NCBI RefSeq assembly: GCF_000007145.1
Contig: NC_003902.1
Coordinates: 757,436 to 789,435 of the forward strand
Source: Xanthomonas campestris pv. campestris str. ATCC 33913
Lineage (GTDB): Bacteria; Pseudomonadota; Gammaproteobacteria; Xanthomonadales; Xanthomonadaceae
Length of the DNA stretch: 32,000 bases
Direction: 5' to 3'
The notes beneath the pieces are model-generated. The model did not search any database, was not told the DNA's origin, and saw nothing but the letters and a program-made list of their open reading frames with translations. The position numbers and the translations under genes are program-made. How positions within the stretch are numbered: the stretch's first letter is position 1; every line of letters begins with the position of its first letter. Positions 1,591 to 30,963 of the stretch are shown piece after piece.

Positions 1591-2703
1591 TCACCACCCC
1601 ATCTTCATGAACCACAACGCCGCAATTGCGTCGAGGATGATGACCAAGGAAATCGTCTGCACCACCGAAGAAGTGGTGCGTTCGCCCACCGACTGCGCGG
1701 TGCCGCTGACCTTCAAACCCTCCAGGCAGCCGATCAGGCCGATCACCAGCGCAAACAGCGGCGCCTTCGACAGGCCGACCAGGAAGTGCCGCAGCTGGAT
1801 GGTGTCGTGCATGCGCGCCAGGTACATCTGCGGCGGAATATCCAGATCGAACGCGCCCACGGTGACGCCACCGGCCAGGCCGGCGATCATCGCGATGAAG
1901 GTCAGCAAGGGCAGGGTGAAGATCAGCGCCAGCAGGCGCGGGATCACCAGCAGGTCGATCGGGTCCAGGCCCAGGGTGCGGATGGCATCCACTTCCTCGC
2001 GCGATTTCATCGCGCCGATCTGCGCGGTAAACGCGCTGGCGGTGCGGCCGGCCAGGACAATAGCGGTGAGTAGTACGGCAAATTCGCGCAGGAACGCGAT
2101 CGACACCAGTTCCACCACATAGATCTCCGCGCCGAAGTCGCGCAGGATCGTCGAGCCCAAAAACGCGATCACCGCGCCCACCAGGTACGACAGCAGCACC
2201 ACCAGCGGCACCGCATCCAGCCCCACCTGTTCCATGTGGTGCACGGTGGAGGTGAGCCGGAAGCGGCGCGGTTCGTGGATCAGTCGCGCGATCTTGACCA
2301 GGTTCTCGCCCAGGAAGCTGTTGAGCTCCAGGATGCCCTGGCCCACGCCGTGGGTGGTGCGGCCCAGACGGTCGAGCGCGGCGACAAAGCCGTAATCGCG
2401 CTTGGGCTTGGGGCGCTCGTCGTTGAGTTCCTCGATGGTGCACACCAGTGCCTGGTGCTCGTCGCGGAAATCGATGGCGTCTTCTTTCAGGCCCATGCGG
2501 CTGGCAAAGCGCAGCAGCTGCAGTACCCCGGCCGAATCCAGTTGCCCGATGCCACGCGCGTCGATGCGGCGCACCCCGTCGGGAACGGCTTGCAGCAGCT
2601 CGGCCTGGGGCAGGGCGGTGGCCAGGACCCAACTGCCGGCGAGGCGTACCTCGGCATGGTCCTGCGAGTCTTGTTCTATGCGTGGCGGTTGCGGTTTGAT
2701 CAT
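1591..2703 (-). CDS. MlaE-family ABC permease with N-terminal STAS/MlaB-like domain
   Basis: 370 aa from ATG at 2703 (MIKPQPPRIEQ...). The N-terminal ~100 aa (AEVRLAGSWVL...IDARGIGQLDSAGVLQLLRF) looks STAS-like. The C-terminal ~260 aa is a multi-TM MlaE-like permease (…REFAVLLTAIVLAGRTASAFTAQIGAMKSREEVDA…). The 814-aa track ORF is an upstream over-extension antisense to the next gene. Confidence 0.85.
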   Translation of the reverse strand: MIKPQPPRIEQDSQDHAEVRLAGSWVLATALPQAELLQAVPDGVRRIDARGIGQLDSAGVLQLLRFASRMGLKEDAIDFRDEHQALVCTIEELNDERPKPKRDYGFVAALDRLGRTTHGVGQGILELNSFLGENLVKIARLIHEPRRFRLTSTVHHMEQVGLDAVPLVVLLSYLVGAVIAFLGSTILRDFGAEIYVVELVSIAFLREFAVLLTAIVLAGRTASAFTAQIGAMKSREEVDAIRTLGLDPIDLLVIPRLLALIFTLPLLTFIAMIAGLAGGVTVGAFDLDIPPQMYLARMHDTIQLRHFLVGLSKAPLFALVIGLIGCLEGLKVSGTAQSVGERTTSSVVQTISLVIILDAIAALWFMKMGW

Positions 2704-2868
2704 GGGCGGCCTGTCCGTGGCGTCAGCATACAGTGGCTGGCGTGAGCGAATGATGGGGAGTAGCTGCGCGCACGGCGACAGCGACCGGCGATGGCGACCA
2801 CGGGCCAGGCGTGCTGCGCATACACTGGCGTCCTCGCCCAGGCGCCGCTTCGATCCGACCCGCCACGC

Positions 2869-4128
2869 ATGTCTGCTGCCACCGTTGTTCCATCGTCCGC
2901 CGGCGCAACCTACGCGCAACGTGTCGCCTTCGTGTCGGAAATCGCCGGGCGCCTGCATTCCTATGGCACCACCGCGCAGCGGCTCGAGGCGGCGGTGATC
3001 GGCCTGTCGCAGAAACTGGGGCTGGATTGCGAGCCCTGGTCCAATCCCACCGGCATCATCCTGAGCTTCAGCGACCCGACCAAGTCGATCGGCTCCAGTG
3101 ACATCACCCGCGTGATCCGCCTGGCGCCGGGCGAGAACGACCTCTACAAACTCAGCGTCGCCGACTACGTGGCCGACAGCGTCGCCAGCGGGCGCATGAG
3201 TATTGCCCAGGGCCACACGGCCCTGCGCCGTCTTGACCGCGAGACGGACCGGCGCGGCAAGGCCCTGCAGGTGCTGGCGTTCGGCCTGGCCGCGGCCGGG
3301 GTGGCCGGGCTGTGGAAGCTGCCGTGGCTGGACATCGCCACCGCCGGGGTGATCGGCATGTCGATCGGGCTGCTCACCCAGTACACCGACAAGCGCCCGG
3401 CCACCAAGGAGGCCGGCGAAGCACTGGCCGGGCTGCTGGCCGGCGTGGTCGCTGCGCTGGTGGCCTCGCTGGTCGGCCCGCTCAATCTCAATACGGTGAT
3501 CATTGCCTCGCTGGTGGTGCTGCTGCCCGGTATGTCGCTGACCAATGCGTTCAACGAGTTGGCCAGCCAGCATTGGGTGTCGGGCACGGCGCGCCTGGCC
3601 GGTGCGGTCACCACGGTGCTCAAGCTCACCGTGGGCGCGGTGATTGCGGTGACGTTGACCCAGTTGGTGGGCTTGAACCCGCAGGTCGCCGCGGTGCGCC
3701 CACAGGCCGGCTGGGTGGAATGGGCCTCGCTGCTGGTGGCCGCGTATGCGTTCGCGGTGCTGTTCAAGGCCAATCGCCGCGATTATCTGTGGATCATGGC
3801 GGCGGCCATGTCCGGGTATGTCATCGCACGTTATGCCGGGCATGCCTGGGGCGGGCCGGCCGGCGTGTTCGCATCGGCGATGGCATTGACCGCCGCCGGA
3901 AATCTGTTTGGACGTGTGGTGCAAAAACCCGGTGCGCTGATCCGGTTGCCGGGCATCATCATGCTGGTGCCCGGTAGCACCAGTTTGCGCGGGTTTTTGA
4001 CCCTGGTGCAGCAGCAGGATGTCACCGTCGGCCAAGCTGCACTATTGGCGGTCACCAATATCGTGATGGCTTTGGTGGCCGGATTGCTGTTTGGCAATCT
4101 GCTGATCCCGGCCCGCAAGAATTTATGA
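2869..4128 (+). CDS. Threonine/serine exporter (ThrE) family membrane protein
   Basis: 419 aa from ATG 2869 (MSAATVVPSS...). An N-terminal soluble-like region is followed by about 10 hydrophobic segments, which is the typical DUF1212+DUF3815 layout. Strong GC3 bias. Confidence 0.75.
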   Translation: MSAATVVPSSAGATYAQRVAFVSEIAGRLHSYGTTAQRLEAAVIGLSQKLGLDCEPWSNPTGIILSFSDPTKSIGSSDITRVIRLAPGENDLYKLSVADYVADSVASGRMSIAQGHTALRRLDRETDRRGKALQVLAFGLAAAGVAGLWKLPWLDIATAGVIGMSIGLLTQYTDKRPATKEAGEALAGLLAGVVAALVASLVGPLNLNTVIIASLVVLLPGMSLTNAFNELASQHWVSGTARLAGAVTTVLKLTVGAVIAVTLTQLVGLNPQVAAVRPQAGWVEWASLLVAAYAFAVLFKANRRDYLWIMAAAMSGYVIARYAGHAWGGPAGVFASAMALTAAGNLFGRVVQKPGALIRLPGIIMLVPGSTSLRGFLTLVQQQDVTVGQAALLAVTNIVMALVAGLLFGNLLIPARKNL

Positions 4129-9564: not shown

Positions 9565-10028
9565 GCGAGATGGCCGTCGCGCCGGTGTGGTCGGACCTGC
9601 AGGTGAGCTGCCTGCAGGCGATGGGCCACACCGTGTATCTGGACCGCGACACGGTGGAGCCCGAACCGGCGCCTGCCGTGGCCGAGGCGCCGGCACCGGT
9701 GCGTGAACCTACGCGCCCGCAACACGCCGCGCCTGCGCCCAGCGCAGCACCTGCCGCACGCCGCAACGCACCGGCTGCGCCGTCCGAGCCACCTGCCGAT
9801 GTCAGCGTTCGACCGTCCGCGCCTGCCGCACCGCGGCGTGGCCGTGTGGGCATGCCCGACAGATTGCAGATTGCCTTGTTGCGTGCATCCGGCTGCAATC
9901 CCGGTGATCCGCAGACCCAGGCGTTGATGGCCTCCTGGCCTCTGGCCGAATTGCGCGGCAACCCGGCCGCCAAGCGCGCGCTGTGGCCGCAGCTGCGCGC
10001 CCTGCGCCGGCGCCAGGGCCCGGCGTGA
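9561..10028 (+). CDS. Probable divergent DNA polymerase III psi subunit (HolD-like) with Pro/Ala-rich insert
   Basis: 155 aa. ATG overlaps the pssA stop (ATGA) and the gene lies directly upstream of rimI, as holD does in E. coli. The C-terminal LAELRGNPAAKRALWPQL resembles E. coli HolD LTDLRANPTARAALWQQI, and the N-terminal LQVSCLQAMGHTVYLDR resembles WQLQQLGITQWSLR. Both E. coli sequences are recalled from memory. Confidence 0.55.
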   Translation: MSEMAVAPVWSDLQVSCLQAMGHTVYLDRDTVEPEPAPAVAEAPAPVREPTRPQHAAPAPSAAPAARRNAPAAPSEPPADVSVRPSAPAAPRRGRVGMPDRLQIALLRASGCNPGDPQTQALMASWPLAELRGNPAAKRALWPQLRALRRRQGPA

Positions 10029-11208: not shown

Positions 11209-12342
11209 ATGAAGCCGAAATTCTCAACGGCGGCCGCCGCGTCGCTGTTTGTCGGGTCGTTGCTGGTGATTGGCGTTGCCAGCGCCGATCCTGCACTGGA
11301 AGTTGCCACGACAGGCTGGGCCACGCAGAACGGTGGCACCAAGGGCGGCTCCAAAGCCGCGGCCGCCAATATCTACACGGTCAAGAACGCTGCCGAGCTG
11401 AAAGCTGCGTTGAAAGCCAGTGTTGGCAGCAACGGACGCATCATCAAGATCAGCGGCGTGATCGACGTCAGCGAAGGCAAGGCCTACAGCACCACGGCCG
11501 ACATGAAGAGCCGCGCGCGTCTGGACATTCCCACCAAGACCACCTTGATCGGCATCACCAGCAACGCGGAAATCCGCGAAGGCTACATGTACGTCAAGGC
11601 GAACGACGTCATCATCCGCAACATCACCATCGAAAATCCGTGGGATCCGCAGCCGGTCTGGGATCCGGACGATGGCAGCGCGGGCAACTGGAACTCCGAA
11701 TACGACGGGTTGACCGTGGAAGGCGCCAGCAACGTGTGGGTGGACCACGTGACCTTCACCGATGGCCGCCGTACCGATGATCAGAACGGCACCGCCAACG
11801 GCCGCCCGAAGCAACACCACGATGGCGCGATGGACGTCAAGAAAGGCGCCAACTACGTGACCATTTCGTACTCGGTGTTCAAGCTGCACGAGAAGAACGA
11901 TTTGATCGGCTCCAGCGACAGCGCCTCCAGCACCGACAGCGGCAAGCTCAAGGTCACCATCCACAACACCATGTTCCAGGACATCGCCGCACGTGCGCCG
12001 CGTGTGCGCTTCGGTCAGGTGCACCTGTACAACAACTACCACGTCGGCAGCACCAGCAATAAGGTGTATCCGTTCTCGCATGCGCATGGTGTCGGCAAGG
12101 AATCGAAGATTTTTTCCGAGCGCAACGCATTCGAGATCAGTGGCGTGAGCAGCTGCGACAAGATCGCTGCCGACTACGGCGGCAGCGTGTACCGCGATCA
12201 GGGCTCGTTGCTCAACGGCAAGGCGCTTTCTTGCTCGTGGAATACCAACATCGGCTGGACGCCGCCGTATACCTACAACCTGCTGTCGGCCGACAAGGTC
12301 GCCGCCGACGTCAAGGCAAAAGCAGGTGCCGGAAAGCTGTAA
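11209..12342 (+). CDS. pel: Secreted pectate lyase, PL1 family (copy 1)
   Basis: 377 aa. GAGGGAG RBS. Signal peptide [28 protein letters not shown]1 hallmarks NVWVDHVTF and [17 protein letters not shown]. Confidence 0.92.
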
Positions 12343-12383: not shown

Positions 12384-12579
12384 ATGGGTTGCAGCTATGC
12401 CGAGGGTGCACGTGCAGCATAGCGAAAATATACTTTTAAATAATTTACATAACCGATAGCATCGGTCGTGTCCGCTAGGGGACTGGCCGATTCGGCCTGG
12501 GCGGATGCAGTGCTGTCACGGGGAGCGCGTCGCGCATGCGACGTGTCATTGCATCACTCATTCAAGAGAATTCAACACC

Positions 12580-13722
12580 ATGTCGACTGCATCGACAGTT
12601 GTGGGTCGTACGGTTGTGGGCGTCGTTCTGGGCGCTGCGTTGTTGTCGGGCACCGCGTATGCGGCAGACCCTGCACTGGAAGTGGCCACCACCGGCTGGG
12701 CCACCCAGAACGGCGGCACCAAGGGAGGCTCCAAGGCGGCGGCGGCAGACATTTACACCGTCACCAACGCGGCCCAGCTCAAGGCGGCCTTGAAGGCCAA
12801 GGCCGGCAGCAACGGCCGCATCATCAAGATCAAGGGTGTCATCGACATCAGCGAAGGCAAGGCCTACACCAAGACCTCGGACATGAAGAGCCGTGGTCGC
12901 CTGGATGTGCCGACCAAGACCAGCCTGATCGGCGTCGGCACCAATGCCGAAATCCGCGAAGGCTTTTTCTACGTCAAGGCCAACGACGTCATTGTGCGCA
13001 ATCTCACCATCGAGAATCCGTGGGATCCGGAGCCGGTGTGGGATGCCGACGACGGCGATGCAGGCAACTGGAACTCCGAATACGACGGGTTGACCGTGGA
13101 AGGCGCCAGCAACGTGTGGGTGGACCATGTGACCTTCACCGACGGCCGCCGCACCGATGATCAGAACGGCACCGCCAACGGCCGCCCCAAGCAGCATCAC
13201 GATGGTGCGATGGACGTCAAGAAGGGCGCCAACTACGTGACCATTTCGTATTCGGTGTTCAAGTCGCACGAGAAGAACAGCCTGATCGGCTCCAGCGACA
13301 GTGCATCGAGCACCGACTCCGGCAAGCTCAAGGTCACCATCCACAACACCTTGTTCCAGGACATTGCCGCACGTGCGCCGCGCGTACGCTTCGGCCAGGT
13401 GCATCTGTACAACAACTACCACCTCGGCAGCACCAGCAATAAGGTGTACCCGTTCTCGCATGCGCATGGCGTGGGCAAGGAATCGAAGATCTTCTCCGAG
13501 AACAATGCCTTCGACATCAGCGGCGTGAGCAGCTGCACCAAGATTGCTGGCGACTACAAGGGCAGCGTGTACCGTGACCAGGGCTCGTTGATCAACGGCA
13601 AGGCACTGACCTGCAGCTGGAACAGCAACATCGGCTGGAAGCCGCCGTATACCTACAACATCCTGCCGGCCAACAAGGTGGCAGCGGACGTCAAGGCCAA
13701 GGCTGGCGCCGGCAAGCTGTAA
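12580..13722 (+). CDS. pel: Secreted pectate lyase, PL1 family (copy 2, tandem paralog)
   Basis: 380 aa. Signal peptide [28 protein letters not shown]. The mature region is collinear with and highly similar to copy 1, with the same PL1 motifs. Confidence 0.92.
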
Positions 13723-14300: not shown

Positions 14301-17135
<2,835 letters not shown>

Positions 17136-17248
17136 GGTGGAATCAAAAGGAGACTGGAAATTTGAATGATCGAAGCGGCGCTAGTTAGCACCAGAATGCA
17201 GTTTTTTTCGTTTTTCAGAGATGGGAAGTAAGGTAATTGGAAAATCTG

Positions 17249-17914
17249 TCAGTGATTCATTGCGCCATAAGCTTGTGTCAGCTTACGCAGTCCATCGCGA
17301 AACTTACAGAAGCTTGGAGACTGATTGAGCTCTACATCCATCTTGGGGCAGATATGGTCGGCCCATGCATGCTTGACCTCGCCAGGTAGCGGCCAGCCAG
17401 CTTTCATGATGGCTGCAGATCCGCCAGGGTGAACTGCGTCCGCCAAGAGCTCCCAGGTTCCACAGATGCTGTCCTGCTGGTAGCCCGAAAGTATTTCTTT
17501 TCTTGCTTTTGGATAGGCAGCGAGCACAGCTGGCTTGTCACCCAGGAACCAGGATTCCATTTCCTCGATCGCGAGGCGAAAAAGAGTCTTCGGCGCCGGA
17601 TTGCACCGCTGCAGCACGGCTTTCAAATCGGCCAGGAAAGTAGCGCAGTCGCGTCGATCACTATCTAAGACAACAACTACTGCGTCTACGCCTTGCGTCC
17701 TGCCGTACCCGCTGAGGAGTCTGGGAAGCTGGTTCAATAATGCGCGCTTCGCAGGGTCTGCAGTAGTCGAAAGGCCGGCTGGTAGTCGTCCGATTCCTTT
17801 GTAGGGGTGGATGCGCCACGTATGCGGTTCTCCATGGAGCCCGATGACGGCTGGCAGCAGCATGCTCACCACCTTGGCGCCAGAACTGTCTTCCACAAGG
17901 ACTTCAATATGCAT
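17249..17914 (-). CDS. DUF4276-like small protein with TOPRIM-type acidic signature (putative nuclease effector)
   Basis: 221 aa from ATG 17914, 2 nt after the ATPase stop. MHIEVLVEDSSG (Glu8), VVVVLDSDRRD (Asp84-x-Asp86), AIEEMESWFLGD. No signal peptide or TM segment. Confidence 0.7.
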   Translation of the reverse strand: MHIEVLVEDSSGAKVVSMLLPAVIGLHGEPHTWRIHPYKGIGRLPAGLSTTADPAKRALLNQLPRLLSGYGRTQGVDAVVVVLDSDRRDCATFLADLKAVLQRCNPAPKTLFRLAIEEMESWFLGDKPAVLAAYPKARKEILSGYQQDSICGTWELLADAVHPGGSAAIMKAGWPLPGEVKHAWADHICPKMDVELNQSPSFCKFRDGLRKLTQAYGAMNH

Positions 17915-17916
17915 AC

Positions 17917-19149
17917 TTATTTTGTATCCAAGTAGTCGCCATACCAAAGTCCACCGAGGGGCAATCCTTCTTCTACGAGATTACGCACCAAATCGATATC
18001 GGACGCCCGGCAAATGGTGGAAAATCCATTTTTTCCTTTCTCGAGTATCCAGACTTCCTTGGTTGAAAGTGCATCTACGAAATAGGGCTGGTGGGTGGTG
18101 ACGAAGATCTGTGGGGCGTTCTTCTTTCCCGTGGCATGGCTTCGCAGTTCACTCGCAAGTGAATCGAGTAATCGATGGTAAAGACCGTTCTCGGGCTCCT
18201 CGATGCAGATAAATGGTGGTGGTTCAGGATCTTCCATCAAGAGCAGGTATGCAAATATTTTCAGCGTTCCATCCGACATCTGGCCAGCATAGAAGGGATC
18301 GTTGAAGGCACCATCGTTGAATTGAAGAAGGACGCGTTTGTCTTGCGTCACAGTTGTTCTGATGCTGTGCACGCCAGGAATTTTTGCCGCGATACGGTCA
18401 AGGATTGTTTTGAAACGTTCTTTATGTTCGCGTTCCATATATTGAACGACGTTTCCGATGTTTTCGCCATGCACATCGAGATGTCGCTGAGCCCCGGCCG
18501 AAGGTATGGAGCGTGCAGAGTCCGGGTGGAAATAGGAGAGATGCCAGCCTTTCAGGAAGTCGCGGAAACGCTTGATGCGCGGATGCTCTTTCAATGTGCC
18601 AAGAGTTGCAATTCCCAACTGGCGCAAATCAGTGAGCTCCACATCCTCTTGAGCGCGATCTTCTTCGCCGCTGGATGTTTCCACCGCTTCTTCGCCAGCC
18701 CATACCTTTCCAACGCCGTGATGCAGGCGTAAGAATGGGTAGGGGCGGCCGTGTTTCTGTCCTTTGCGACGTTGCTTGAGAACCTCTGACTCGACGAATG
18801 GTCGCCCGCTGCTGTCCAGATTGATGGCCAGCTCGTAGGTGATGGGGCGTTCGCCCTTGGCTTCTCGGTAATAGATATCGAACCGTATGGATTCCTCAGT
18901 TCCCAAGGAGCGCATGCGCTCAAAGCCTCCGCGTTGTTTATCGTCGCAGGCCGATTCCACGTCCTTCGATAAGCAGTCGGCGACAAAGCCGAAGGCATCG
19001 AATAGCGTGCTTTTTCCGACACCGTTCTTGCCGATGACAACGGTGAAAGGAGTCAGCGGATCACCCTGCTGTTCAGCAGATAGGCGTCCAAGCGTGATAT
19101 CGCGCAGCGCGCGATAGTTGCGGACACGAAAGCCTTCGATTAATGCCAT
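17917..19149 (-). CDS. ABC/SMC-type (AAA_15/AAA_21-like) ATPase
   Basis: 410 aa. Walker A GKNGVGKST (aa 40-48), signature-like QMSDGT (aa 290-295), Walker B FICIEEPE (aa 313-320), H-loop TTHQ (aa 351-354). About 240 aa are inserted between the Walker A and signature motifs. Confidence 0.85.
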   Translation of the reverse strand: MALIEGFRVRNYRALRDITLGRLSAEQQGDPLTPFTVVIGKNGVGKSTLFDAFGFVADCLSKDVESACDDKQRGGFERMRSLGTEESIRFDIYYREAKGERPITYELAINLDSSGRPFVESEVLKQRRKGQKHGRPYPFLRLHHGVGKVWAGEEAVETSSGEEDRAQEDVELTDLRQLGIATLGTLKEHPRIKRFRDFLKGWHLSYFHPDSARSIPSAGAQRHLDVHGENIGNVVQYMEREHKERFKTILDRIAAKIPGVHSIRTTVTQDKRVLLQFNDGAFNDPFYAGQMSDGTLKIFAYLLLMEDPEPPPFICIEEPENGLYHRLLDSLASELRSHATGKKNAPQIFVTTHQPYFVDALSTKEVWILEKGKNGFSTICRASDIDLVRNLVEEGLPLGGLWYGDYLDTK

Positions 19150-19158
19150 ATCCTTCCC

Positions 19159-19584
19159 CTACATGTCGTATTTCGTGAGTTCCAGGCCCAGGGCCTTGTA
19201 CTGCTTCCAGCGTTCGCGCAGCGGTTCGCGGGCGGCGGGGTCGGCGGGCACCACTTCCAGCACGCGGTCGCAGGCGCCCAGGTACGGGTCGTCGCGCAGG
19301 TTGATCACCAGCGGGCGCGAGGGCGCGGCGAACTCGGGCGTTGCGATCAGCACCGGCGCCAGTTCGTCTTCCTCATCGGTGCCGGCGATCTGGTGCGGCA
19401 CATAGGCTTCGTCGTCGAACGCCCACAACAGGTCATCCAGCGCCTCGGCCTGTGCGGCATCGCGCGCCAGGATCAGCGTGGACAGGTTGGCATCGTTGGC
19501 CTTGCGCGCCAGCTCGCAGACCAGCCGCAGCGGTTCGTCGAGGAAGCGCGGTTTGGCGATCAGGTAAAAGTCGGCACGGGGCAT
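19159..19584 (-). CDS. holC: DNA polymerase III chi subunit
   Basis: 141 aa. MPRADFYLIAKPRFLDEPLRLVCELARKA...LWAFDDEAYVPHQ. Located immediately downstream of pepA, as in E. coli. Confidence 0.9.
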   Translation of the reverse strand: MPRADFYLIAKPRFLDEPLRLVCELARKANDANLSTLILARDAAQAEALDDLLWAFDDEAYVPHQIAGTDEEDELAPVLIATPEFAAPSRPLVINLRDDPYLGACDRVLEVVPADPAAREPLRERWKQYKALGLELTKYDM

Positions 19585-19586
19585 CA

Positions 19587-19707
19587 GGGCAGGGAATCGG
19601 GAGAGGAGAGTTGGGAATGGTCACGGCACCGCCGCGACCTCGAAGGTCGCGGCGGTGCCTGAAAGGAAAGGGCTTTCACGATTCCCTATTCCCGATTTTC
19701 AATTCCC
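19587..19707. repeat. Palindromic heptamer-repeat element (GGGAATC ... GATTCCC type) with central perfect hairpin
   Basis: Left arm gggcagggaatcgggagaggagagttgggaatgg. Centre ggcaccgccgcgacc-tcgaa-ggtcgcggcggtgcc, a 15-bp perfect stem at 19625-19659. Right arm attccctattcccgattttcaattccc, which overlaps the pepA stop and its last two codons. Confidence 0.65.
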
Positions 19708-23473: not shown

Positions 23474-23805
23474 TGCGCAAGCGCTGGCTGAGTGTTTTCG
23501 GCCTGGTGCTGTGCGTGCCGTACGCTGTCCTGATCGTGCAGTGCCTGCGTTGGGCACACGATCCGCAGGTCGATTACAAAAGCCGGTTGGTGTGGAAGCA
23601 GTTACCGGTGCTGCTGCAGTCGATGGTCGCAGAAGGCCTGGGCCTGACAGTGCTGCTGGGTTGGCTTCCCTGGGCAATGGCCTATGTGCTGATGGCGGCG
23701 CCCATGTTCGTGGGGCTCTACCTGTTGGGTAAGGTGGTGGAAGACACCATCAGAGGTCATCACCCGTTTTGGAAGGATGCTTCCAACCCCGGTGCAGACA
23801 AGTAG
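23473..23805 (+). CDS. Hypothetical small membrane protein (about 3 TM)
   Basis: 110 aa. The ATG overlaps the lptG stop (TGATG). Three hydrophobic segments. GC3 bias is weaker than in neighbouring genes and no family was recognised. Confidence 0.45.
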   Translation: MRKRWLSVFGLVLCVPYAVLIVQCLRWAHDPQVDYKSRLVWKQLPVLLQSMVAEGLGLTVLLGWLPWAMAYVLMAAPMFVGLYLLGKVVEDTIRGHHPFWKDASNPGADK

Positions 23806-24012
23806 TGAGTTGGGCGCCTCGTTTCCGTGTTTGACAGACGTGCAAACGCGCTGGGTGACACGGTGCAGTGCACGGCCATGCGCCTTGATCGGGTAGTTGG
23901 GCCGTCGAACTGGCACGGTTTTAGCCACCGGCAAGTATAGTTGCGCGGCCGCCGCGTCCCGCTGCGACGGCAGGCGTCCAGGCGGCACCTAACCTCACGC
24001 TGCCCGGGAACG

Positions 24013-26916: not shown

Positions 26917-29900
26917 ATGATGGTCCTCGAGGGCGCTTCCGCCCTTTCGCCGTTCCGCCGCGCTCGGCTCGAAACCCGCCTGCAAACGCTCGTCCCCGCG
27001 CTGCGTCTCACTGGCGCCTGGCACGTGTACTTCATCCGTGCCGATGCCGGGCGCACGCCCGACCAGGCCACCTTGCAGCGCATCCTGCAGGCCGAGCCGG
27101 CGCCTGCGCCGCGCGATGAGGCTGCCTCTTCGCGCTACGTGGTGCCACGGCTCGGCACGCTGTCGCCGTGGTCGAGCAAGGCCACCGAGCTGATGCGCGG
27201 AGCCGGGCAGCCGATCCAGCGCGTGGAGCGCGGCACCCGGATCGATCTGGCCGGGTGGCCGGAAGGCGAGGCCGATCAGGCCGCGGTGGCCAAGCTGTTG
27301 CACGACCCGATGACGCAATCGTTGCTCGGCTCGGCCGCAGCGGCCGAAGCGCTGTTCAACGTGCCCGATCCCGGCCAGCTGGAACGCATCCCGCTGGATG
27401 CGCTGGAACAGGCCAATGGCGATCTGGGCCTGGCACTGGCGCAGGACGAGATCGACTACCTGCGCGAGCGCTTTGCCGCGCTCGGCCGCGACCCGGCCGA
27501 CGTCGAACTGATGATGTTCGCGCAGGCCAACTCCGAGCACTGCCGGCACAAGATCTTCAACGCCAGCTGGACCATCGACGGCAAGCCGCAGGAGCGCTCG
27601 CTGTTCCGGATGATCAAGCACACCCACCAGCAGACCCCGCAGCACACCTTGTCGGCCTATAGCGACAACGCGGCGGTGGTGGAAGGCGTGCCGGCGGCGC
27701 GGTTCCGCCCCGATCCGGCCACCGGCGAATACCGCAGCGAAGCGGTGGTGCCCTCGGCCTTCGCCATCAAGGTGGAAACCCATAACCATCCCACCGCGAT
27801 TGCGCCGTTCCCGGGCGCGGCCACCGGTGCCGGCGGCGAGATCCGCGACGAAGGTGCCACTGGCCGCGGTGGCAAGCCCAAGGCCGGCCTGACCGGGTTT
27901 TCGGTGTCGCATCTGCGCATCCCGACCTTGCCGCAGCCGTGGGAAGCGCCGCGCGCGCTGAATCCGCGCATGGCGCCGGCGCTGGACATCATGCTCGACG
28001 GCCCGCTCGGCGGCGCGGCATTCAACAACGAGTTCGGCCGGCCGAACCTGCTTGGCTACTTCCGCAGTTTTGAGCTGGCCGAAGGCCAGGGCCTGACCCG
28101 CGCCTACGACAAGCCGATCATGCTGGCCGGCGGCCTGGGCGCGATCGACCGCAACCAGGTCGAAAAGCTGCGCCTGCAACCGGGCGATGCGGTGATCGTG
28201 CTGGGTGGCCCGGCGATGCTGATCGGTCTGGGCGGCGGCGCCGCCAGTTCGGTGGCCGCCGGTGACAGCGCCGAGGCGCTGGACTTTGCCAGCGTGCAGC
28301 GCGAGAACCCGGAGATGGAACGCCGCTGCCAGGAGGTCATCGACCACTGCGTGGCACTGGGCACCGATAACCCGATCCGCTGGTTCCACGACGTGGGCGC
28401 CGGTGGCCTGTCCAACGCGATCCCCGAGTTGCTGCACGACTCCGGCGTGGGCGGGGTGATCGACCTGGCCAGGGTGCCGAGCGACGACCCGTCGCTGTCG
28501 CCGCTGGAGTTGTGGTGCAACGAATCGCAGGAACGCTACGTGCTCGGCGTGCCGCAGGCGCGCCTGGACGAATTCGCCGCGATCTGCGCACGCGAACGCT
28601 GCCCGTTCGCCGCCGTCGGCGTGGCCACGGCCGAGGAACGGCTGGTGGTGGGGTATGGCGTTTTTGACGCAGCGAATCGGGAATCGGGAATCGGGAATCG
28701 CAACAGCGCGTTGCCGGCTGCCGAGGCCGCTTCCGCCCATTCCCTATTCCCCACTCCCGATTCTCCGCTCCCGATCAACCTGCCCATGGACGTGCTGTTC
28801 GGCAAGGCGCCGAAAATGCACCGCGATGCCGTGCATCCGGCGGCGCCGCAGTGGCCGGTGCTGCAGACCGGGGCGCTGGATCTGCAGGAGGCCGGGTTGC
28901 GCGTGTTGGCGCATCCGACCGTGGCGTCCAAGAGCTTTCTGGTCACCATCGGCGATCGCAGCGTGGGCGGGCTGACCGCGCGTGAACAGATGATCGGGCC
29001 GTGGCAGCTGCCGTTGGCCGATTGCGCGATCACGCTGGCCGGGTTCGAGACCTTCGATGGCGAAGCGATGTCGATTGGCGAGCGCACGCCGCTGGCGCTG
29101 CTGAACGCCGCGGCCTCGGCGCGCATGGCGGTAGGCGAGGCGATCACCAACCTGTGTGCGGCGCCGGTGCAGACGCTGGACAGCATCAAGCTTTCCGCCA
29201 ACTGGATGGCTGCCGCCGGACACGCCGGCGAAGACGCCTTGCTGTACGACGCAGTGCGCGCGGTCGGCATGGAACTGTGCCCGGCGCTGGAGCTCAGCAT
29301 CCCGGTGGGCAAGGACTCGCTGTCGATGCAGGCGCAGTGGCAGGTCGGGAATGGAGAATCGGGAATCGGGAATGGTGAAACGCCAGCACCGTCCGCTTCT
29401 GCCATTCCCGATTCCCGACTCCCGATTCCCGGTGAAACGCTGAAAAGCGTTTCACCGGTATCGTTGATCATCAGTGCATTTGCGCCCGTCAGCGATGTGC
29501 GTACGCAGCTCACTCCGTTGCTGCAGCGCGAGGATGAGAGCGAGCTGTGGTTGATCGGCCTGGGTGGCGGCAAGCAGCGTCTGGGTGGGTCGGTGCTGGC
29601 GCAGGTGTATGCCGATGACAGTGCGTTGCCGGCCTTCGGTGGTGAAACACCGGACCTGGATGACCCGCAGCGGCTGCGCCAGTTCTTTGAACTGATCCGC
29701 GATGCACGCGAGGGTGGATTGTTGCTGGCGTATCACGATCGCAGCGATGGCGGTGCGTTTGCCGCGCTGTGCGAAATGGCGTTTGCCTCGCGCCAGGGCC
29801 TGGATATCACGCTCGACGCCTGGGGCGATGATGCCTTCCGCAGCCTGTTCAACGAAGAATTGGGCGCGGTGGTGCAGATCGCCAATGAAGACCGCGCCGC

Positions 29901-30963
29901 GTTTGCCGATCTGGTCGAGCGGCATGCACTGACCGAATGCGCGCAACGCATCGCACGCCCCACCGGCACCCCGCGCGTGCGTGTCAGCGGCCAGGGCCGG
30001 GTGTTGGCCGAATGGCGCTGGGAAGCGCTGTTCGATGCCTGGTGGTCGGTGACGCACGCCATGCAGAAGTTGCGCGACAACCCGGACAGTGCCGACGAAG
30101 AACGCGCGGTGGCGCGCAACTTCCAGGCGCCGGGGTTGCGCCCGAAGCTGGTGTTCGACCCGTCCGAGGATGTGGCCGCGCCATTCGTGGCGACCGGTGC
30201 ACGGCCGAAGGTGGCGATCCTGCGCGAGCAGGGCGTCAACGGCCAGATCGAGATGGCCTACAACTTCGAGCGTGCCGGGTTCCGTGCGTTCGACGTGCAC
30301 ATGAGCGACCTGATCGAAGGCCGCGTGGACCTGGCGCAGTTTGCAGGATTTGCGGCTTGCGGCGGCTTCAGCTACGGCGATGTGCTGGGCGCCGGCCGCG
30401 GTTGGGCCACCTCGATCCTGGAGCGTGCGGCACTGCGCGATGCGTTTGCCGCATTCTTTGCGCGCAGCGATACCTTTGCGCTGGGCGTGTGCAACGGTTG
30501 CCAGATGCTGAGCCAGCTCAAGGACATCATTCCCGGTGCCGAGCACTGGCCGCGCTTCCTGCGCAACCGCAGCGAGCAGTTCGAAGCACGCACGGCGCTG
30601 CTGGAAGTGGTGGAGTCGCCGTCGATCCTGCTGCGGGGCATGGCCGGCTCGCGCATTCCGGTGGCAGTGGCGCATGGCGAAGGCCGCGCCGAATTCGACA
30701 CGGCGGTGGATCAGGCCGCGGCGCGCGTGGCACTGCGCTTCATCGACGGTGACGGCGCGGTGGCTAGTCAGTACCCGCTCAATCCGAACGGGTCGCCCGA
30801 CGGCATCACCGGCCTGACCAGCACCGATGGGCGCGCCACCATCTTGATGCCGCATCCGGAGCGCACGCCGCGCTCGGTCAATCTGAGCTGGCATCCGGCG
30901 GGCTGGGGCGAGGACTCGCCGTGGCTGCGCATGTTCCGCAATGCGCGGGTGTGGTGTGGTTGA
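26917..30963 (+). CDS. purL: Phosphoribosylformylglycinamidine synthase (large single-chain PurL)
   Basis: 1348 aa. Starts [14 protein letters not shown]. Contains the AIR-synthase-like duplicated core and a C-terminal glutamine amidotransferase domain (GVCNGCQM ... HGEG ... PHPER). Confidence 0.98.
28674..28776. repeat. Palindromic heptamer-repeat element inside purL (copy A, degenerate right arm)
   Basis: (gaatcgg)x3 + gaatcgc at 28674-28701, a 37-nt spacer, then attccct/attcccc/actcccg/attctcc/gctcccg at 28739-28776. Translated in frame as [10 protein letters not shown]...[12 protein letters not shown]. Confidence 0.65.
29347..29456. repeat. Palindromic heptamer-repeat element inside purL (copy B)
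   Basis: Perfect 15-bp inverted repeat gggaatcgggaatgg (29361-29375) / ccattcccgattccc (29402-29416). A second perfect hairpin ggtgaaacgc-tgaaaa-gcgtttcacc lies at 29431-29456. Translated in frame as [11 protein letters not shown]...[19 protein letters not shown]. Confidence 0.7.

Follow-up and report, generated by a model that had tools for sequence, protein, structure and literature searches.

A heptamer inverted repeat translated within purL of Xanthomonas campestris, probably an old passenger in a permissive PurL loop

The purL gene of Xanthomonas campestris pv. campestris str. ATCC 33913 (Xcc) carries within its reading frame two inverted-repeat elements made of 7-nt units. The upstream one, copy A, occupies positions 28672-28765 of the window, that is, of the whole 32,000-nt stretch analysed here (NC_003902.1, positions 757,436 to 789,435 of the forward strand), and all of it is in frame with purL. 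Copy A is translated, its arms co-vary, and the peptide that it encodes is poorly conserved. We regard it as probably an old copy from the GGGANTN inverted-repeat family that has been inherited vertically and is carried as a passenger in a permissive loop of PurL past the first AIRS_C subdomain.

The ORF that hosts both elements (26917..30963, forward strand), taken from the ORF list and its translation, encodes a phosphoribosylformylglycinamidine synthase of 1348 aa: Salmonella PurL structures match its product at E = 0 in phmmer, and the Pfam domains agree. The exact 1348-aa PurL is also present in X. campestris pv. campestris 8004 (CP000050.1), and the index of the assembly collection lists the identical protein for 321 blocks. 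The initial annotation, made from the sequence alone, had named the gene and translated the stretch around copy A into 49 residues, both correctly. Copy A thus behaves as an in-frame palindromic element does, with the frame kept and the element translated inside an uninterrupted 1348-aa ORF.

All features of copy A lie on the forward strand, and its sequence has the layout of the family, in which a G-rich arm and its C-rich complement stand on either side of a spacer. The G-rich arm (28672..28699) consists of one GCGAATC unit followed by three GGGAATC units and encodes A-N-R-E-S-G-I-G-N-(R). The spacer (28700..28737, 38 nt in the GGG register) contains near its 3' end a GCTTCC motif (28729-28734), an instance of the GCTT[CT][CT] that recurs family-wide ahead of the C-arms of most members, and the decayed C-rich arm (28738..28765) reads CATTCCC, TATTCCC, CACTCCC and GATTCTC and encodes H-S-L-F-P-T-P-D-S. 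The same repeat had been described at first in another register, with three gaatcgg units (28674-28694), one gaatcgc (28695-28701), a 37-nt spacer (28702-28738) and five right-hand units, attccct, attcccc, actcccg, attctcc and gctcccg (28739-28773), followed by atc to 28776. Units, spacer and positions are as described, and at 28674-28700 Tandem Repeats Finder detects 3.9 perfect copies, but the fifth right-hand unit, gctcccg with its atc, is probably flank that merely resembles a unit, because the segment in which it lies (cgctcccgatc, 28766..28776, encoding P-L-P-I) aligns to the native gcgccgatc of the empty Stenotrophomonas site. This segment is kept as gc[ta]cccgatc across alleles, irrespective of arm type. 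In the minimum-free-energy fold the C-arm pairs with the G-arm, with a hairpin z of -2.54 (2 of 200 shuffles fold equally well). The sense strand has only three intact GGG tracts, since the first unit begins with GCG, and so falls short of the four or more units with intact tracts that a G-quadruplex takes; the X. arboricola allele, whose spacer is 83% identical, has four.

Judged from the alignments, copy A is an insertion relative to both Stenotrophomonas and Salmonella. The phmmer alignment breaks at Xcc residues 583/618, facing Salmonella chain positions 603/606, so that insertion A (codons 584-617, 28666..28767, forward strand), absent from Salmonella PurL, sets 34 residues against 2; at copy B, Xcc residues 815-842 face a single residue. 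The earlier statement that enteric PurL has only a few residues at this place is therefore right, and the orthologue alignment proposed as a check on it reveals a length difference at site A against Salmonella and Stenotrophomonas alike. Between common anchors, sites A and B measure 72 and 58 aa in Xcc versus 45 and 31 aa in Stenotrophomonas, a net gain of 27 codons at each site. This supports the estimate of about 30 repeat-derived residues for copy A, and the further claim that the two insertions account for the extra length of the protein holds against the Stenotrophomonas PurL of 1293-1294 aa. Across the Xanthomonadaceae, where PurL ranges from 1293 to 1388 aa, the size differences stem from the same two patches, sites A and B. 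The empty site A reads ...GCC GAT GCG CCG ATC GAC in three Stenotrophomonas loci, and against it no target-site duplication is visible at copy A; no transposase stands next to the elements in the loci read. Among the matches listed, two genomes of the Lysobacteraceae/Lysobacterales (L005 and L009) have site A filled and site B empty, an occupancy that fits the earlier suggestion that copy A is older than copy B. The decay of the right arm, on which that suggestion had been based, is nevertheless no clock, because Pseudoxanthomonas and Xanthomonas sp. MLO165 keep four perfect right-arm units at site A.

Copy B (29347..29430, forward strand; G-arm 29347-29374, spacer 29375-29402, C-arm 29403-29430) lies 0.65 kb downstream of copy A in the purL ORF and is a 27-codon insertion, better preserved than copy A, with a hairpin z of -8.17. 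It is accompanied by a direct repeat of 10 bp, GGTGAAACGC, at 29374-29383 and 29431-29440, and by a perfect 10-bp hairpin of the native flank at 29431-29456 (the whole feature spans 29374..29456, forward strand). The direct repeat is a candidate target-site duplication, although one of its copies lies inside the element. In the X. arboricola allele L088, precisely the spacer, the C-arm and one copy of GGTGAAACGC are missing from site B (57 nt).

The window holds four further arms or arm pairs besides copy A. A non-coding member at 1474-1584 has a G-arm of the GGGATTC type (1475-1503) and a C-arm of the GAATCCC type (1556-1584), and another between pepA and holC (19592..19707) has a GC-rich hairpin (19625-19659) in the middle, between a G-arm and a C-arm that reads GATTCCC, TATTCCC, GATTTTC and AATTCCC. 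The palindrome, which had been presumed to belong to a family, is indeed common to both of these, to copy B and to orthologues in other species. When searched with at most 2 mismatches, GAATCGGGAATCG gave 14 matches in the window versus 0.88 +/- 0.89 in shuffles, none of 100 shuffles reaching 14. Heptamer arrays number 2-7 per 24 kb in the Xanthomonas and Pseudoxanthomonas loci, with none in 38 kb of Stenotrophomonas, and occur in every Xanthomonas locus examined save that of X. fragariae; the family is thus dispersed in many copies per genome. Within 250 nt, arm pairs were detected roughly 40 times, some of them overlapping or orthologous; in all of these the G-arm comes first, and the pairs have in common an inner module of the type GTGAAAAGC...GCTTTTCAC. 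Copy A conforms to this paired class, with a convergent opposite-strand array nearby and the G-arm in front. Its arms also form terminal inverted repeats as those of MITEs do, though built of tandem units. In the consensus fold of eight orthologous copy A elements 92% of the cells are paired, and compensatory A-U/U-A swaps left 10 doubly changed cells, versus 5.0 +/- 1.3 in shuffles and 0-2 in slid controls. A scan of the window at the Rfam gathering thresholds returned no matches, so the element fits no curated RNA family, and viral contigs yielded 3 exact (GGGAATC)3 matches only, with no sign of phage carriage.

Heptamer repeats of this kind were catalogued in Xcc by Rehm, Wurmthaler, Li, Frickey and Hartig in 2015 (PLoS One, PMC4692102) as a GGGANTN family of 186 loci with 70 convergent pairs. 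Copy A agrees with these repeats in unit, organism and convergent layout of G-arm and C-arm, and satisfies their definition of at least two tandem units (14 bp) with at least one GGGAATC. In the supplement (PMC4692102), the G-arm of copy A is repeat #26, 'intragenic: purL', a single repeat with no partner arm; copy B is #27/#28, the pepA-holC element #24/#25 and the X. citri orthologues #155-157. The G-arm of copy A was thus already catalogued, and #26 stands there as partnerless because the decayed C-arm had gone unrecognised. The repeats were studied as G-quadruplex formers; 56% of the family members are G4-competent, the consensus repeat forms a G4 in vitro, and an RNA-seq table places a transcript boundary within the orthologous X. 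citri repeat (PMC4692102). They are treated there as G-quadruplex-forming SSRs, a description that copy A in Xcc does not fit for want of the required four intact G-tracts. The sections consulted contain no discussion of in-frame translation, of the PurL loop, of the empty site in relatives, of arm covariation or of the GGGACTC and GGGACCC types (PMC4692102), and our search of the literature found no protein-level account of the purL repeat.

As passenger DNA, copy A would be a loop of PurL with no role of its own. The ribosome would read the arms as a low-complexity peptide, (GNRESGI)n followed by a (DSRFPIP)n-like stretch, which is predicted to form a disordered surface loop. Two properties may explain the survival of the element: the heptamer arms are free of stops in any frame or orientation, and extra residues would be tolerated at this place in PurL. 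Every unit type indeed lacks stop codons in 3 frames and 2 orientations, and the predicted peptides are those observed. Selection on PurL would demand only a total length that is a multiple of three, and this frame requirement would block the one-unit (7-nt) slippage that varies the length of intergenic copies; the point changes of the Xcc right arm would merely have accumulated. By Pfam, the AIRS_C subdomain comprises residues 421-579 and insert A begins 5 residues later, and copy B breaks into the end of a PurM_N-like domain. The AlphaFold model of PurL is poor overall (mean pLDDT 62.6), and was used for this reason solely for local contrast near the inserts. It gives the insert a pLDDT of 35-44 versus 87-90 in the preceding blocks and no predicted secondary structure for most of its length, values which, given the quality of the model, speak weakly for disorder.

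The comparison of alleles is consistent with these expectations. All site-A alleles retrieved, from 55 to 93 aa, are in frame and stop-free; an intein, an intron or translational bypass was discarded on this ground, since removal of the insert would require neither. The site-A region is 72 aa long in X. campestris, X. arboricola, X. hortorum and X. cucurbitae, the alignment of Xcc with X. arboricola has 0 gaps, and PurL is 1348 aa in 15 of 15 members listed in the X. campestris cluster. The variation in unit number between strains that had been predicted was thus not seen in this cluster or these four species, and copy A lacks the frame-switching unit changes of a contingency (phase-variable) SSR. 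Xanthomonas heptamer repeats serve as typing markers, and MLVA typing uses variable-number heptamer loci at which 7-nt units are gained or lost between strains. Copy A differs from these loci in being constant within the X. campestris cluster listed and the four species, as expected because one-unit changes would be frameshifts in an essential gene. Complete loss of the insert was not found among the Xanthomonas examined, which yielded partial deletions only, at site A in X. fragariae (most of the insert lost) and at site B in X. arboricola L088. Between the same-type alleles of Xcc and X. arboricola, the element has diverged by 15% at the nucleotide level versus 23% at the third codon positions of purL (4.9% and 2.8% at positions 1 and 2 of the core gene), and a count on the retrieved protein sequences gives about 10 differences among 40 residues of the insert.

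Passive inheritance alone leaves one puzzle, namely that Xcc 8004 and X. campestris L085, whose purL genes are 98.2% identical, have different subfamilies at both sites. Most of the gene has 0-4 differences per 100 nt between them, with one window at 8, and the differences are concentrated at the two elements, with 15+15 differing positions at site A and 17+17 at site B. A single big recombinant tract covering both sites is ruled out by the ordinary divergence of the intervening 500 nt, and an inversion between the arms as the source of the switch between AAT and ATT units was rejected on logic, because an inverted palindrome regenerates identical arms. A rather unlikely solution is that the element is overwritten in place, its arms and sometimes its spacer being re-copied from other family members so that site A is repeatedly re-colonised; ectopic gene conversion after breaks at a hairpin or G4, or structure-directed homing, may provide the route. 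The insert has the same site-A boundaries, within about 2 codons, in every Xanthomonas and Pseudoxanthomonas PurL retrieved, yet four unit types occur there according to species (GGGAATC, GGGATTC, GGGACTC and GGGACCC), with both arms changing together, as in the four CAATCCC opposite GGGATTC in Pseudoxanthomonas or GGGTCCC opposite GGGACCC in pv. badrii, and with the left arm holding four units while its type switches. X. translucens L092 has GGGACTC-type arms with unrelated spacers at three places (pepA-holC, dsbC-purL and purL site A), whereas L091, 95.1% identical to it in the purL core, has other types at all three. Chimeric arm pairs occur as well, at site B of L086, which combines two arm types, and at site A of L091, where GGGAATC faces GAATCCC with an A.A mismatch in each unit. 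However, the 15% divergence of the same-type alleles of Xcc and X. arboricola, similar to or below that of neutral sites, implies that the element can stay put for long periods, and old allele classes spread by ordinary homologous recombination would explain equally well that AAT and ATT types are both found within X. campestris and within X. arboricola. No donor copy was identified; the L085 spacer is 61-64% identical to every comparator and does not tell whether L085 combines an Xcc-like spacer with foreign arms, and the family is nearly absent from viral contigs. We know of no candidate enzyme for such overwriting.

Several observations are counted against a mere passenger: the arms stay paired across taxa, so that selection on DNA or RNA structure is possible, the divergence of the element (15%) lies below that of third positions (23%), the insert is never wholly lost in the Xanthomonas examined, and a transcript boundary falls within the orthologous X. 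citri repeat (PMC4692102). The same observations, together with the in vitro G4 of the consensus (PMC4692102), the compensatory changes that keep the arms complementary over eight taxa and the position of both purL elements at or beside subdomain ends, could speak for a role at the nucleic-acid level, in which a hairpin or G-quadruplex tunes transcription or mRNA stability and processing, or slows the ribosome for folding. We consider such a role quite unlikely for copy A, which in Xcc has three intact GGG tracts and a weak hairpin. Nor is pairing obligatory, as the mismatches of L091 and the site B chimera of L086 illustrate; the PurL of Stenotrophomonas, of Salmonella and of most other bacteria has no insert; loops at domain ends also simply tolerate insertions; and the covariation could come from the way in which arms are generated or converted, with no need for selection. 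That the roughly 27 residues have been domesticated, and now take part in the function, regulation or interactions of Xanthomonas PurL, is very improbable. The insert is retained genus-wide, its region is constant at 72 aa in four species, and certain residues recur among GGGAATC-type alleles (G-I-G-N, P-x-P-D-S-P-L-P), but these are the residues that the heptamer units dictate. Other species have quite different peptides at site A, of 55 to 93 aa (e.g., GTRDPGPG...VPGPGSRVPGP and GFEIRKSDSS...NPQSPIP), little of the insert is left in X. fragariae, and the predicted structure combines low confidence with little secondary structure. The initial annotation had seen copy A as possibly in the process of domestication, an idea that finds no support where peptide and length vary so freely between species. 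Scarcely credible is the derivation of copy A from a local microsatellite grown in situ from native purL, with a fortuitous likeness on the right-hand side. The right arm of Xcc is degenerate and the native flanks are faintly unit-like (CCCGATC at the right edge of site A, GGCGAA at site B), but the orthologous alleles of Pseudoxanthomonas and pv. badrii have clean complementary right arms, and the G-first layout and the inner motif ahead of the C-arm are common to intergenic copies. C-first pairs, which local growth would produce as often as G-first pairs, were not seen, and genomes that lack the family, as in the Stenotrophomonas loci, have empty sites; this derivation is already largely refuted.

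If copy A is only a passenger, it is a tidy but ordinary example of its kind. The purL copies nevertheless give, unlike intergenic ones, exact filled and empty sites in an essential and highly alignable host gene, and the reading frame acts as a filter by which slippage can be told apart from substitution or conversion; arm covariation and the turnover of subfamilies at fixed boundaries are clearly seen in them. Were overwriting true, the family would be self-renewing, its arms and spacers swapped for those of another subfamily at fixed boundaries, even within an essential ORF and between genomes with 98% identical flanks, by break-induced ectopic conversion or structure-directed copying, undescribed for bacterial heptamer repeats, and the two frame-locked purL copies would be natural reporters of the copying process. 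Both PurL patches are best masked before phylogenies are built or selection is analysed.

In-frame palindromic elements are known chiefly from Rickettsia; with the purL copies the phenomenon also reaches a plant pathogen that lives freely, and a repeat whose units are 7 nt long. The Rickettsia palindromic elements (RPEs) and other intragenic MITEs (PMC10969869) likewise form short palindromic families inserted in frame in unrelated housekeeping genes, and RPE-type inserts are translated as an extra peptide thought to be compatible with the fold of the host protein. RPEs, however, are about 150 bp long, encode a conserved peptide and are not tandem heptamers, whereas the peptide of copy A is a by-product of a 7-nt unit of which all three frames are read; the architecture differs and the sequences are probably unrelated, so this is a likeness of behaviour and not of membership. 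Xanthomonas is not mentioned in the intragenic-MITE review (PMC10969869). The family of copy A resembles the REP/BIME elements, which are abundant, mostly intergenic hairpin repeats of gamma-proteobacteria, often just downstream of genes and with species-specific variants. REPs, however, are single imperfect palindromes of 20-40 nt that begin from a different plan, with a conserved head of the GTAG type and a RAYT gene linked to them, whereas the arms of copy A are built of tandem heptamers and lack that head. The RAYT-linked elements were reportedly described by Nunvar et al. in 2010, the SMAG repeats being the Stenotrophomonas example; the Xanthomonas heptamer repeats are not known to have a RAYT link. 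Heptamer repeats of Nostoc and Anabaena, such as the STRR repeats, consist of G-rich 7-nt tandem units and are abundant and mostly intergenic. The heptamer given as GGGGAYT in Rehm et al. (PMC4692102) resembles that of Xanthomonas in being a G-rich tandem 7-nt unit, and differs in phylum and in the unit itself. Heptamers are reported to be the commonest intergenic tandem repeats in many prokaryotes, with 'no clear clue' for the periodicity (PMC6344855). That site A tolerates inserts is also indicated by S. acidaminiphila, which has an unrelated, GC-rich hairpin there, and by Luteimonas, which has a further insert.

Copy A lies wholly in frame within the ORF at window positions 26917-30963, the product of which is a 1348-aa PurL that matches Salmonella PurL structures with E = 0, carries the full Pfam domain set, and is encoded identically by Xanthomonas campestris pv. 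campestris (Xcc) 8004 (CP000050.1) and many more Xcc assemblies. The DNA of 28660-28780 agrees with the description in the initial annotation. In the GGG register, the left arm (G-arm) reads GCGAATC GGGAATC GGGAATC GGGAATC (28672-28699) and is followed by a spacer of 38 nt (28700-28737) and by the right arm (C-arm), CATTCCC TATTCCC CACTCCC GATTCTC (28738-28765). A fifth right-arm unit had also been proposed (gctcccg + atc, within cgctcccgatc at 28766-28776); it is counted here as flank because gc[ta]cccgatc is kept whatever the arm type, and it aligns with the native gcg ccg atc of Stenotrophomonas. Tandem Repeats Finder reports 3.9 perfect copies at this place, and GAATCGGGAATCG, allowing at most two mismatches, has 14 matches in the window against 0.88 expected, so the repeat is far above chance. 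Folded arm against arm, the copy A hairpin is modestly better than shuffled sequences (z = -2.54), and that of the sister element in the same ORF, copy B (29347-29430), has z = -8.17.

The unit and its arrangement match the GGGAATC/GGGANTN repeats published for Xanthomonas (Rehm et al. 2015, PMC4692102). That paper reports 186 repeat loci in Xcc, 11% of the repeats being intragenic, and 70 cases of two convergent arrays on opposite strands. The DNA repeat of copy A is already catalogued, since the supplement lists its G-arm as repeat #26, "intragenic: purL", without a partner; copy B is the pair #27/#28, and the X. citri orthologues are #155-157. The passages of the paper examined here take up neither the degenerate partner arm nor the fact that the repeat is translated as part of PurL, and they make no comparison across species at these sites. 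Copy A is a member of this family by its unit and by its tandem, paired, and dispersed character, but this copy lacks G4 competence. Further members in the window are a GGGATTC-type pair at 1475-1584 and a GGGAATC-type pair at 19592-19707 that encloses a GC-rich hairpin. The former is flanked by the stop of the long minus-strand ORF 1591-4035 and by the start region of the ORF that follows (678-1508), whose annotated 5' end its G-arm overlaps.

A survey of arm pairs within 250 nt took in about 230 kb of loci from Xanthomonas and Pseudoxanthomonas, with a few relatives added. All of the approximately 40 detections, some of them overlapping or orthologous, have the G-arm first, and none the C-arm first. 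Most pairs also contain an inner module, with GTGAAA(A/C)GC, GCAAC.GC, or GTCACRGC after the G-arm and GCTT[CT][CT]..C before the C-arm; for example, GCTTTTCAC is the reverse complement of GTGAAAAGC, and in copy A the G-arm is followed by GCAACAGC and the C-arm preceded by GCTTCC. The universal order and the common module are what descent from one palindromic progenitor predicts, because a palindrome is identical in either insertion orientation, and they argue against independent microsatellite birth at each locus. Rfam holds no family matching the element, and the repeat is nearly absent from viral contigs. Beyond Lysobacteraceae proper, G-first pairs of the GGGATTC/GGGAATC type are also present in a Rhodanobacteraceae MAG (L022, 12709-15859, with eight heptamer arrays in 16 kb) and in Chiayiivirga (L011, 12347-12456); their purL genes are apparently without inserts, as judged only by match lengths of 3,894 and 3,876 nt.

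A tandem heptamer under translation runs through all three frames and yields a 7-residue peptide repeat. The units GGGAATC, GGGATTC, GGGACTC, GGGACCC, GGGAGTC, GGGAATG, and GGGGATT give no stop codon in three frames and both orientations, and the peptides that they predict (GNRESGI, DSRFPIP, HSPFPIP, NPQSPIP, GTRDPGP, and VPGPGSR) are exactly those of the PurL inserts. Aligned to Salmonella PurL, the Xcc protein breaks twice, with residues 584-617 facing 2 residues and 815-842 facing 1. Among the best 120 listed PurL relatives, lengths were measured between the fixed anchors RERCPF...DVLFGK and GKDSLSM...[ST]AF: Stenotrophomonas proteins (1293-1294 aa) have 45 and 31 residues and Xcc has 72 and 58, and therefore the inserts are +27 and +27. 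The earlier proposal that two insertions explain the extra length of PurL thus stands, as they fully account for the 1348 aa. Furthermore, in the DNA of three Stenotrophomonas loci site A is empty (...ggc gcc gtg ccg ggc cac acc ccg gcc gat gcg ccg atc gac...), as is site B.

Insert A starts five residues past the end of the first AIRS_C subdomain (421-579), and copy B interrupts the PurM_N-like subdomain (671-811; profile positions 1-141 of 160) in its final part. The AlphaFold model computed for residues 190-1040 has a mean pLDDT of 62.6, which is poor overall, and is informative locally: the blocks before insert A score 87-90, insert A has values of 35-44 and no secondary structure over most of its length, and insert B stays below 50. 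Insert A would be a disordered loop, presumably without a function of its own. Between Xcc and X. arboricola, which share the unit type, site A aligns without gaps and shows 22 differences in 144 positions, the purL core differing by 4.9%, 2.8%, and 23.1% at codon positions 1, 2, and 3. The nucleotides are not hypervariable within one unit type. About a quarter of the insert A residues differ by hand count, several times the rate in the remaining protein, and the peptide is therefore weakly constrained. For the suggestion that copy A is being domesticated, nothing was found in support.

The purL DNA of nine further genomes was fetched and both sites were extracted. Site A is occupied in every Xanthomonas examined, in both major clades, and in Pseudoxanthomonas, with boundaries equal to about two codons. 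The left and right units are GGGAATC and ATTCCC-type in Xcc and one X. arboricola; GGGATTC/GGGATTG and GAATCCC/CAATCCC in a second X. campestris (L085), Xanthomonas sp. MLO165, and Pseudoxanthomonas; GGGACTC and GCGTCCC in one X. translucens (L092); and GGGACCC and GGGTCCC in pv. badrii and X. melonis. In two Lysobacteraceae/Lysobacterales loci (L005 and L009) site A is filled and site B empty, and in some Stenotrophomonas and Luteimonas site A holds inserts of unrelated kinds, such as a 29-codon insert of another kind with a GC-rich palindrome (cccggcccggcgc agc gcgccgggcg) in S. acidaminiphila (L094:4726-4875); Luteimonas RC10 has nonheptamer inserts at both sites. Site A is therefore generally permissive and, relative to site B, either older or occupied in more genomes; the claim that copy A is the older of the two fits the distribution.

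X. campestris, X. arboricola, X. hortorum, and X. cucurbitae all have 72 aa between the site A anchors, and the Xcc protein cluster has 1348 aa in each of its 15 listed members; the copy-number variation for which the initial annotation suggested a comparison was not seen in these. Copy A thereby behaves differently from a phase-variable locus. In intergenic DNA, the arrays of this family have between 2 and 26 units (PMC4692102). On the simplest reading of the frozen length, slippage by one unit would frameshift an essential gene and be removed by selection. These intergenic arrays are reportedly used as MLVA typing markers.

Taken together, the initial observation is confirmed and its core interpretation supported: copy A is probably a passenger, an old and inherited member of the heptamer inverted-repeat family that is frame-locked in a permissive PurL loop. 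The data establish its insertion, translation, family membership, constant site, and poor peptide conservation. It adds another in-frame case to a known repeat family and to a known phenomenon. In its behavior it resembles the palindromic elements of Rickettsia and other intragenic MITEs that form in-frame fusions (PMC10969869), to which it is unrelated; that review of intragenic MITEs makes no mention of Xanthomonas. The head motif of RAYT-type REPs is missing.

A further rival is a role at the nucleic acid level, with a hairpin or G4 acting on the purL mRNA or a translational pause at the subdomain ends. It is favored by the covariation of the arms, since the variable fifth base of the left unit changes together with its right-unit partner. 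In the consensus hairpin of eight aligned AAT/ATT-type elements (22 pairs, 92% of cells paired), three pairs, one per unit in three units at the fifth base, are swapped from A-U to U-A, each in three sequences. There are 10 doubly changed cells; column shuffles give 5.0 ± 1.3, none of 500 getting as high as 10, and slid controls give 0-2. A transcript boundary reported for X. citri (PMC4692102) points the same way. However, arm pairing is not obligatory, as a second X. translucens (L091) combines GGGAATC left and GAATCCC right units at site A, an A.A mismatch in every unit. Such tolerated mismatches weaken this role, as do the three-tract G-arm and weak hairpin in Xcc.

Switches of element type between close genomes do not fit neatly with a passenger copy. 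The purL cores of Xcc 8004 and L085 are 98.2% identical, with 0-4 differences per 100-nt window over most of the gene and 8 in one window, but 15+15 differences fall at site A and 17+17 at site B, the 500 nt between them being ordinary. The changes are concerted: the fifth base goes from A to T in three of the four left units, three of the four right units show the matching complementary change, and as many units are present as before. Both unit types also occur within X. arboricola. In X. translucens, L091 and L092 have purL cores 95.1% identical. The arms of L092 are of the GGGACTC type, with unrelated spacers, at pepA-holC, dsbC-purL, and purL site A; L091 has other types at these places, GGGAATG/GGGATTC at several orthologous positions. 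The differing elements lie at about 2870-3070, 9750-9960, 11740-11890, and 12470-12600. At site B (12398-12568) Xanthomonas sp. MLO165 (L086) is chimeric, with a left arm 100% identical over 32 nt to the Xcc GGGAATC-type arm, despite about 10% species divergence, and a CAATCCC-type right arm as in L085. Possibly, old allele classes were kept and shuffled by ordinary recombination while their flanks were homogenized; it is also possible that elements were overwritten in place via conversion from other copies. A spacer-similarity test of these two readings gave 61-64% identity to every comparator, alike for all. With its fixed boundaries, co-varying arms, subfamily turnover, and length lock, the comparative result gives the purL copies value for studying the biology of heptamer repeats in bacteria.

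Several minor observations accompany these results. In X. melonis (P0136; L090, 11675-11953 and 12455-12685) both elements are of the GGGACCC type and their spacers are alike (…REEQTQERDSASSAGGASVAADPAV… and …REKQPQTQERDSASLADGASVAVDPAV…), as though one were a copy of the other or the two had a common source. Copy B has a 10-bp direct repeat, GGTGAAACGC, at 29374-29383 and 29431-29440, and its native flank forms a perfect 10-bp hairpin (29431-29456). X. arboricola L088 retains only the G-arm at site B (L088:12392-12508; PurL 1329 aa) and is 57 nt shorter, as if by deletion between the direct repeats. The entire dsbC-purL intergenic spacer between the arms differs between L091 and L092. Between Xcc 8004 and L085, holC (19161-19584) is only 90.8% identical, its neighboring genes being about 98%, and the stretch between lptG and an RDD-domain gene (23525-24009) is also strongly divergent. 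Finally, a low-GC island of about 2 kb (17121-19160; 50-55% against about 65% GC around it) between valS and holC is missing in L085; its two ORFs on the minus strand match the PADLOC candidate defense system HEC-01, namely HEC-01A (17920-19149; E = 1.8e-191; Pfam AAA_21) and HEC-01B (17252-17947; E = 6.8e-97; weak DUF4276).
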